IMG/VR virus record: IMGVR_UViG_2684622670_000021
Location: 1-37,564 of that record
Source of the DNA: a virus
Lineage: Duplodnaviria > Heunggongvirae > Uroviricota > Caudoviricetes
Length of the DNA: 37,564 nt
Strand: one strand, 5' to 3'
Below are positions 24,410 through 26,245 of this stretch, piece by piece. Position numbers and translations under genes: made by a program. The notes below the pieces were generated by a model, which did no database searches, was not told where the DNA came from, and worked only from the letters and a program-made list of their open reading frames with translations. The first letter of the stretch is position 1; the number at the start of each line of letters is the position of its first letter.

Positions 24410-25889
24410 CACCATTCCGTCGAATACGCTGGTTCCGCTGTTTTATGCGGAAATGGATAACTCGGCGGCGAATACTGCACAGGACAGCGGGGCATCGTTG
24501 CTGATTGGTCACGCCAATAACGGTGCAGAGATTGTTGCCAACAGTCTGGTGCTGATGCCGTCGGCAGACTATGCACGCCAGATTTGTGGTGCGGGAAGTC
24601 AGCTGGCGCGTATGGTCGAGGCTTATCGCCAGACCGACCCGTTTGGCGAGCTGTATGTGATTGCCGTTCCGGAAGCCACAGGCGCGGCGGCAACGGTTAC
24701 GCTGACGGTGACCGGAGCAGCAACCGAAACCGGCACGGTGAATGTGTATGTGGGACGTACCCGCGTGCAGGCACCGGTGACCAACGGCGATAACGTCACG
24801 ACGATTGCCAGCAGTATCAAAGATGCCATCAATGCCGTTCCGGCCCTGCCGTTTACGGCCTCATCTTCGGCAGGCGTGGTCACACTGACCGCGCGTCATA
24901 AGGGGCTTTGCGGGAATGAAATTCCTGTCAGCCTCAATTACTACGGCTTTGGTGGGGGCGAAGTGCTGCCAGCGGGTGTACAGATTGCCGTGGCGACGGG
25001 GACCGCCGGAACGGGCGCTCCGGTTCTCACCGGTGCGGTGGCTGCAATGGCGGATGAGCCGTTTGATTATATCGGTCTGCCGTTCAACGACACGGCCTCC
25101 GTTAACACGCTGGTGACCGAGATGAACGATACCAGCGGTCGCTGGAGCTATGCGCGTCAGCTGTATGGTCATGTGTATACGGCAAAGATCGGCACGCTGT
25201 CAGAACTGGTGACCGCAGGTGACCAGTTTAACCAGCAGCACATCACCCTGGCGGGGTACGAAAAAGAGACCCAGACGCCTGCCGACGAGCTGGCGGCAAG
25301 CCGTACCGCCCGCGCAGCGGTGTTTATCCGCAACGATCCGGCACGTCCCACGCAGACCGGTGAGCTGGTGGGTATGCTGCCTGCGCCGAAGGGGAAACGG
25401 TTCACGATGACCGAGCAGCAGACCCTGCTGTCTCATGGCGTGGCAACGGCGTATGTCGAAAGCGGGGTGCTGCGCATTCAGCGTGATGTCACCACGTACA
25501 GGAAAAATGCTTACGGGGTTGCGGATAACAGCTACCTCGACAGCGAGACGCTGCATACCAGTGCGTATGTACTGCGCAAACTGAAATCCGTCATTACCAG
25601 TAAGTACGGGCGTCACAAGCTTGCCTGTGACGGTACCCGCTTTGGTCCCGGTCAGGCGATTGTCACCCCGGCGGTGATCAAAGGGGAACTGCTGGCAACC
25701 TACCGTCAGCTCGAGCGTGCGGGGATCGTGGAAAACTACGAACTGTTCAAGCAGTACCTGGTTGTGGAGCGTGATGCCAGCGATCCGAACCGCCTGAACA
25801 CGCTGTTCCCGCCTGACTATGTTAACCAGTTGCGTGTCTTTGCCGTGGTTAACCAGTTCCGTCTTCAGTATTCAGAGGAGTCTGCATAA
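24393..25889 (+). CDS. Tail sheath protein (Mu-like contractile tail)
   Basis: 498-aa ORF immediately upstream of the tube and tape-measure genes. Confidence 0.8.
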   Translation: MTISFNTIPSNTLVPLFYAEMDNSAANTAQDSGASLLIGHANNGAEIVANSLVLMPSADYARQICGAGSQLARMVEAYRQTDPFGELYVIAVPEATGAAATVTLTVTGAATETGTVNVYVGRTRVQAPVTNGDNVTTIASSIKDAINAVPALPFTASSSAGVVTLTARHKGLCGNEIPVSLNYYGFGGGEVLPAGVQIAVATGTAGTGAPVLTGAVAAMADEPFDYIGLPFNDTASVNTLVTEMNDTSGRWSYARQLYGHVYTAKIGTLSELVTAGDQFNQQHITLAGYEKETQTPADELAASRTARAAVFIRNDPARPTQTGELVGMLPAPKGKRFTMTEQQTLLSHGVATAYVESGVLRIQRDVTTYRKNAYGVADNSYLDSETLHTSAYVLRKLKSVITSKYGRHKLACDGTRFGPGQAIVTPAVIKGELLATYRQLERAGIVENYELFKQYLVVERDASDPNRLNTLFPPDYVNQLRVFAVVNQFRLQYSEESA

Positions 25890-26245
25890 TGGCCCGTATC
25901 GGGGGAACCTGTTATTTCAAAATTGACGGTCAGCAGCTATCGCTGACCGGCGGCATTGAGGTGCCCATGAACAGGACGGTCAATGATGACATCATCGGCC
26001 TGGACGGTTCAGTGGACCGCAAGGAAACTCACCGTGCGCCTTATGTCAAAGGGACCTTCAAGGTGCCGAAGAATTTTCCGGTGAGCAAAATCACCTCGTC
26101 TGATGAGATGACCATCACTGCCGAGCTGGCGAACGGTTAGGTCTATGTACTGTCGTCTGCCTGGCTGCACGGCGAAGCGAACCATAATGCCGAAGAAGGC
26201 ACGGTCGATCTTGAGTTCCACGGTGAAGAAGGGGATTACCAGTAA
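25889..26245 (+). pseudogene. Tail tube protein interrupted by an in-frame amber (TAG) codon
   Basis: 83-codon ORF ends at TAG 26138-26140; the same frame continues 34 sense codons (VYVLSSAWLHGEANHNAEEGTVDLEFHGEEGDYQ) to a TAA that overlaps the next gene's ATG, giving a ~118-aa protein. Confidence 0.6.

Follow-up and report, generated by a model that had tools for sequence, protein, structure and literature searches.

An amber codon interrupting the tail tube gene of an SfV-like Escherichia coli prophage: a probable instance of early prophage decay

The temperate phages SfV, SfI and SfII each encode a tail tube protein in an intact open reading frame (ORF) of 357 nt (orf12, NP_599044, in SfV; gp14 in SfI; SfII_14 in SfII), and the E. 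coli prophage protein WP_000090998.1 comes from the same gene at the same place. In all of these the tube gene lies between the genes for the tail sheath and the tail assembly chaperone, the stop and start codons of adjoining genes overlap, and codon 84 is CAG. The tail tube of phage Mu (PDB 9khy, 9ki1, 9lj8), whose protein we take to be gpM, shares with this family a length of 118 amino acids (aa) and a common fold. Its sequence, however, is matched by the SfV-type tube only weakly (E 0.67), with an identity of only about 15%. A different kind of relative is provided by the defective (cryptic) prophages of enterobacteria, which lose virion genes by point mutation, indel or IS insertion; the usual way for such prophages to arise is through losses that have no effect as long as the phage stays dormant. 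The locus described here belongs to the first group by sequence, with a DNA identity over positions 25500-26700 of 98.1-98.3% to the SfV, SfI and SfII phages and 99.9% to E. coli EC1515, but it differs from its relatives in having TAG at codon 84 of the tube gene.

The window, by which we mean the whole stretch of 37,564 nt that was analyzed, holds an almost complete SfV/SfI/SfII-type prophage. It is 100% identical to contig BBVP01000018.1 of the NCBI draft assembly GCA_001514785.1, a contig whose proteins are labelled Escherichia coli by the sources. After an integrase gene at the left end come the lambdoid early region, the head module and a contractile tail module like that of Mu; a gene for an O-antigen-type acyltransferase lies near the right end. 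The order of genes within the tail module resembles that of phage Mu, but the head and packaging functions do not: by Pfam the head module is of the HK97/P27 type rather than Mu-like, with a P27-family small terminase subunit and an HK97-family prohead protease and capsid. The left edge of the window falls exactly on the stop codon of the integrase gene, and the right edge on the start codon of the last gene. The integrase is extremely common (28,578 blocks in the look-up), and its usual insertion is next to proA/proB; relatives of the prophage also adjoin proA/proB, and in the collinear prophage TOE3 the integrase is flanked by a tRNA-Thr gene. In its E. coli isolate the prophage probably occupies the thrW site, adjacent to proA.

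All of the features considered below lie on the + strand. The tail tube ORF (25889..26140) begins with an ATG at 25889 that overlaps the TAA of the intact sheath gene (24393..25889), a 498-aa ORF that matches Pfam Phage_sheath on the source contig and has no premature stop relative to TOE3. In the ORF list and translation, 83 codons are followed by the amber codon TAG at 26138..26140, and the next base is G. Past this codon the frame continues as an orphaned 3' part of the tube gene (26141..26245), consisting of 34 sense codons, VYVLSSAWLHGEANHNAEEGTVDLEFHGEEGDYQ, and a TAA at 26243-26245 whose final A, at 26245, is the first base of the chaperone ATG. This layout had been described in an earlier, sequence-only reading of the window, which also took the gene to encode the tail tube; both the layout and the assignment were confirmed. 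An open stretch of 34 codons has an estimated chance of roughly 0.2-0.3 and is not significant alone. The downstream frame can be recognized as the remainder of the tube gene because the tube gene of E. coli EC1515, which is intact at 357 nt, has a 3' end with 100% identity to the 105 bases after the TAG. Over the whole 357 nt the only difference between the two sequences is C>T at 26138, so that CAG becomes TAG.

The genes downstream of the tube gene, which has the sheath gene on one side and the chaperone and tape measure genes on the other, as is usual for the family, appear undamaged. The chaperone gene (26245..26514; Pfam PF10109 Phage_TAC_7, E 1.9e-16) is intact and is preceded by a Shine-Dalgarno-like motif, AGGGG, read by eye at 26230-26234, 10 nt before its ATG. 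A second ORF (26481..26663), in the -1 frame relative to the chaperone, runs into the beginning of the tape measure gene before it ends, and a slippery heptamer read from the sequence, T_TTT_TTC at 26496-26502, would give access to this frame. Since programmed frameshifting is known of tail chaperone genes, the extension is a putative product of such a frameshift. The tape measure gene (26656..28491) is likewise intact, with a 611-aa ORF that matches PF10145 on the source contig and contains no premature stop relative to TOE3.

When codon 84 is read as Gln, giving a protein of 118 aa, the product matches positions 1-115 of 117 of Pfam PF10618 Tail_tube (E 2.4e-33) and positions 2-119 of 119 of PHROG 185, 'tail tube protein' (E 1.1e-44). 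An AlphaFold model made from a 99%-identical homologue (pLDDT 81) contains ten beta-strands and one short helix, and the top PDB match of this model in Foldseek is the phage Mu tail tube (9khy_A; TM 0.80, 117 columns, E 1.2e-07). In the model, residues 85-118, those encoded after the TAG, form the strands 85-93, 98-100, 105-111 and 114-117, which are four of the ten. In an alignment of 30 diverse homologues these residues also make up the most conserved segment of the family, with 9 invariant and 13 nearly invariant columns; position 84 itself is variable and can be Q, M, T, A, R or K. Because four of the ten strands, all within the best-conserved segment, are missing, the 83-aa fragment would be unable to fold or to polymerize into a tube, judging from the model.

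The homologues also speak to whether some members of the family might end naturally at 83 aa, as the sequence-only reading had asked. Among the 120 protein clusters listed, which span Escherichia, Yersinia, Edwardsiella, Pantoea, Serratia, Dickeya and Aeromonas, nearly all have a length of 118 aa with 100% coverage, and none forms an 83-aa class. Similarly, an intact 118-aa ORF is present in 109 of the 111 IMG/VR copies that contain the whole gene region, and the remaining two are disrupted, one (L039) by an indel and one (L072) by an IS insertion. A natural 83-aa ending is thus ruled out and, since the ORF halts at codon 84 while its homologues have 118 aa, the locus is a pseudogene of the Mu gpM-like tail tube family.

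The ancestral state of the codon is equally clear. Codon 84 is CAG in SfV, SfI, SfII, EC1515 and TOE3, so that the original codon was Gln CAG, as had been predicted, and a one-base difference separates the window from EC1515. In a collection of complete E. coli genomes the TAG allele is found in 0 of the 991 matching records, which come from 984 of 5,426 genomes and all have CAG, and it is found in 0 GTDB species representatives. A 27-mer containing the TAG has 0 matches in IMG/VR; the corresponding CAG 27-mer is present in at least 120 IMG/VR contigs. One relative, E. coli KSC1031, is identical to the window from 24290 to 28352 except at 26138. Because this tract of 4.06 kb, which comprises the sheath, tube and chaperone genes and most of the tape measure gene, differs at that base alone, the C>T change is, on sequence comparison, very recent.

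Copies of the TAG allele outside the source contig were found by an exact look-up of the 83-aa product in Logan assemblies. The TAG is present in the assembly of run DRR017159, with 0 differences to the window in 8.7 kb, and in those of SRR13061432 and two further samples, with 1 difference in 13 kb; both groups appear to belong to the clone of the window. It is also present in one contig of SRR21545349 (L007), in which the prophage is 97.5% identical to that of the window. The in-frame stop is shared by no other relative, that is, by none except the runs of the same clone and this one further run. Many other exact matches to the 83-aa product were contigs that simply break off at base 248 or 251 of a gene that is intact and has CAG; these ends probably reflect branch points of the assembly graph at the third-codon positions 249 and 252.

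Very probably, then, the amber codon is a genuine and recent spontaneous nonsense mutation in the tube gene of a temperate myovirus like SfV, SfI and SfII, and marks an early step of prophage decay. A C>T transition at 26138 converted the Gln84 codon CAG to the amber codon TAG, so that ribosomes would release an 83-residue fragment lacking the last four beta-strands of the Mu gpM-like fold. With no tube inside the sheath, no tails and hence no infectious particles should be made. In a lysogen such a loss would be invisible to selection for as long as the phage is dormant and, because a tube defect leaves the host exposed to lysis, mutations of this type would build up by drift. The intact downstream frame is simply the rest of the tube gene, which has not mutated. 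The chaperone would probably still be initiated on its own through the AGGGG motif, and the loss of translational coupling over 105 nt is expected to have a modest polar effect at most.

Other damage in the prophage agrees with this explanation. The 54 annotated genes of the collinear TOE3 prophage were compared with the window gene by gene; 6 of them (two immunity genes and four genes at the tail-fibre end) are without a counterpart in the window, and the tail fibre gene is matched over its 5' part only. Among the remaining genes the window contains exactly two premature stops, the tube TAG and a TGA in the portal gene (19120..20202; Pfam PF04860). The latter, at 20200-20202, is codon 361 of 413, after which the frame is open to 20361; relatives have GGA at this codon. 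The opal codon that the sequence-only reading had reported in the portal gene is thus present, and its inference of prophage decay from the two stops is supported, at a very early stage of the process. A third lesion, in the one gene of the comparison that showed gaps, points the same way. In this DUF968/HNH-like gene (10944..11846), alignment with TOE3 and SfII reveals an 11-bp deletion after about 11841, and the resulting frameshift replaces the last 29 of 329 residues by a single valine and a stop, leaving 300 aa. No complete E. coli genome has this deletion; the best match to the gene among them is 98.7%, a value that by arithmetic fits the 11-bp gap plus about one mismatch. Both the 360-aa portal product and the 300-aa DUF968 product are on record only for the source contig, and the two lesions could be assembly errors, which would leave the prophage with one lesion.

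Private mutations in the window were also collected by comparison with 17 relatives. The 78 candidates mostly represent clustered, unsampled haplotypes and are too confounded by mosaicism for a ratio of non-synonymous to synonymous changes to be drawn from them. Among the relatives themselves, KSC1031 has a frameshift in its tape measure gene and TOE3 has one in a hypothetical gene; damage of this kind is common in the SfV-like prophage family. Like other defective enterobacterial prophages, that of the window combines private inactivating lesions in virion genes with an intact repressor and intact genes likely to benefit the host (the acyltransferase, a KAP NTPase and a DUF6236 protein). It differs from them in that the process has barely begun: no gene has been deleted, and apart from codon 84 the tail module is identical to that of intact relatives.

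One aspect of the data, and only one, is mildly unexpected: the same nonsense allele is found on a second prophage background. The prophage of SRR21545349 has 443 differences from the window in 17.6 kb. Downstream of the stop it carries the SfI-like haplotype of the tube gene, and its portal gene is intact and encodes 413 aa. A single neutral event does not predict this distribution, and the same codon would have been either hit a second time independently or transferred by a short gene conversion. The two cannot be separated, since all haplotypes are identical over 25839-26149. Such a recurrence on a diverged prophage, with another tube haplotype and an undamaged portal, is what would be expected if the mutation were real but not neutral, either because codon 84 is a mutational hotspot or because loss of the tube is favored in lysogens. 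However, by our estimate roughly four CAG codons and one TGG codon of the gene are open to a transition that creates a stop, so that repeat hits are expected; moreover, the exact look-up of the 83-aa product finds this allele alone and thereby introduces an ascertainment bias. Given so few codons of this type, this manner of searching and the very large number of sequenced E. coli, a repeat hit at codon 84 is, on our own estimate, unremarkable. The local sequence offers nothing to promote the change, as 26138 does not lie in a Dcm site (TCAGG rather than CCWGG) and is without a flanking quasi-palindrome that could template C>T. Nor does a tube defect spare the host from lysis, which leaves the lysogen no evident advantage, and short gene conversion within the identical tract is also possible. 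A non-neutral mutation therefore has little likelihood. The specific proposal that the same TAG in two prophages 2.5% apart reflects a hotspot, selection for tail-less lysogens, or a circulating, recombining conditional allele that depends on a suppressor is very unlikely.

Suppression has to be considered in its own right, since the sequence-only reading had offered a host with suppressor activity as the alternative to decay. In this case an amber suppressor tRNA together with read-through of the opal codon would keep the allele functional, and the prophage would be a conditional mutant that still makes virions. Several observations are compatible with this. Because residue 84 is variable among homologues (Q, M, T, A, R or K), most inserted residues should be tolerated, and any amber suppressor would probably restore tube function; supE, which inserts Gln, could in principle rescue the tube amber. 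The portal stop is TGA followed by A, UGA-A is a leaky stop context, and the portal is needed at only 12 copies per virion. The presence of the TAG in two prophage backgrounds could be counted on the same side. However, two types of stop require two mechanisms, and the 11-bp frameshift is beyond suppression. A virion requires hundreds of tube subunits, and in E. coli termination at TAG is not weak when G is the next base. TAG and TGA are also both in normal use: the 52 listed genes of the window end in 25 TGA, 24 TAA and 3 TAG codons (the premature TAG of the tube gene counted), with genuine TAG stops in ymfR, next to the portal gene, and in the ORF at 4840-5046. No tRNA gene was detected in the window by ARAGORN; a suppressor might be encoded elsewhere in the host genome, but the data give no sign of one. 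The in-frame stops lack conservation among relatives, the tube allele occurring in none of the matching records from complete E. coli genomes. The lesion is of the same type as those of laboratory amber phage mutants, in which CAG is changed to TAG in an essential virion gene, but the prophage allele comes from draft assemblies and sequencing runs in which nothing indicates mutagenesis or a suppressor host. Thus, functional expression through host suppression is highly improbable, and this part of the sequence-only reading was not upheld.

The sequence-only reading had further named a sequencing error as an outcome that would undo its claim. That the TAG is an artifact of sequencing or assembly, with the true gene intact, might be suspected from the source, a draft whole-genome shotgun contig (BBVP01000018.1) that is also the sole record of the other two lesions of the prophage. 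However, at least four other runs or samples have yielded Logan assemblies with the identical TAG, and the recurrence of a single-base error in non-repetitive sequence is, in our judgement, unlikely. With the codon found again in assemblies made from other runs, and checked in this way at the level of assemblies, an error is extremely unlikely as the origin of the TAG.

A programmed stop, whether by recoding of TAG to Gln or by a regulated read-through that gives short and long forms of the tube protein, can be given almost no credence: although TAG does replace a Gln codon, as in recoded phages, and the downstream frame is intact, the homologues share a uniform length of 118 aa and include no 83-aa class, and non-conservation of the stop (CAG in relatives; TAG in 0 of 991 E. 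coli records and 0 IMG/VR contigs) refutes this reading for practical purposes on the sequences compared. In recoded gut phages TAG is reassigned to Gln (bioRxiv 10.1101/2021.08.26.457843), and the prophage resembles these phages in having an in-frame TAG in a late gene where relatives have Gln, but it differs from them in that the codon occurs only once in frame in its 52 genes, still serves elsewhere as a true stop, is accompanied by no suppressor tRNA in the window and is not conserved.

The prophage of the window is an ordinary one, freshly disabled; a literature search on nonsense mutations in SfV-type tube genes returned nothing specific. Past annotation, the finding matters little. The appropriate label for the locus is that of a tail tube pseudogene, within an SfV-like prophage that is probably non-infectious, rather than two genes or a recoded gene. 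With one base changed in 4 kb that are otherwise identical to a relative, it is a clean example of early prophage inactivation, and it illustrates that predictions of prophages that look intact can conceal lethal point mutations.

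The amber mutation of the tail tube gene, in which codon 84 has changed from CAG to TAG, is likewise present at positions 10001-10357 of L007, a contig from the Logan assembly SRR21545349. The SfV-like prophage on this contig, whose portal gene is intact, is just 97.5% identical to the window; the TAG that the two share is therefore either a recurrent mutation or the result of a short gene conversion. The tube gene is otherwise broken in two of 111 copies, both on IMG/VR contigs: in L072 an IS3-family transposase is inserted ahead of codon 73, and in L039 an indel shifts the frame. 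Several contigs retrieved with an 83-aa tube product end within the gene, at base 248 (L009, L010, and L015) or at base 251 (L012-L014), and there the gene is intact and carries CAG. In several unrelated assemblies two fixed breakpoints closely flank codon 84, one on either side. Such breaks are likely due to co-resident copies of a prophage, between which the assembly graph branches at third-codon positions.

The portal gene (window 19120-20361) contains an opal codon, TGA, at 20200-20202. Sequence comparison places it at codon 361 of 413, where the window has TGA versus GGA in relatives; the base 3' of the TGA is A. The portal TGA is without independent confirmation, because the resulting 360-aa product is recorded for the NCBI source contig (BBVP01000018.1) only. 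A further lesion is present in the DUF968/HNH-like gene (10944-11922), which, relative to TOE3 (a collinear prophage) and SfII (a related phage), has lost the 11 bp ATACCGTGGTA at about 11841/11842. The resulting frameshift leaves a truncated protein of 300 aa instead of 329, and this 11-bp deletion was not found in any complete E. coli genome searched. The locus whose tail module is most closely related to that of the window, in E. coli KSC1031 (L017), is itself damaged: its RefSeq annotation includes a frameshifted tape measure gene (locus positions 21157-22990) and lists the tail fibre gene stfP (28675-28971) as truncated.

Near the 3' end of the tail chaperone gene (26245-26514) lies a slippery heptamer, T_TTT_TTC (26496-26502), and a second ORF (26481-26663) overlaps the chaperone gene and terminates within the start of the tape measure gene. 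A -1 slip at the heptamer would fuse the chaperone to this ORF, a putative case of the programmed G/GT-type frameshifting that is usual in genes for tail chaperones. At the tail fibre end, a gene for tail fibre assembly is present in relatives such as TOE3 and SfII, whereas in the window the interval 34653-34844, which separates the tail fibre gene (366 aa) from that of the acyltransferase, holds only an ORF of 59 aa; the prophage may thus lack the fibre chaperone or have a truncated one.

Three genes in regions of low GC (0.33-0.38) look like cargo: those for a KAP-family P-loop NTPase (12334-13665, minus strand), a DUF6236 protein (15286-16149, plus strand), and an Acyl_transf_3 acyltransferase (34844-35977, minus strand). 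All three have been kept intact, in contrast to the lesions in virion genes of the same prophage.
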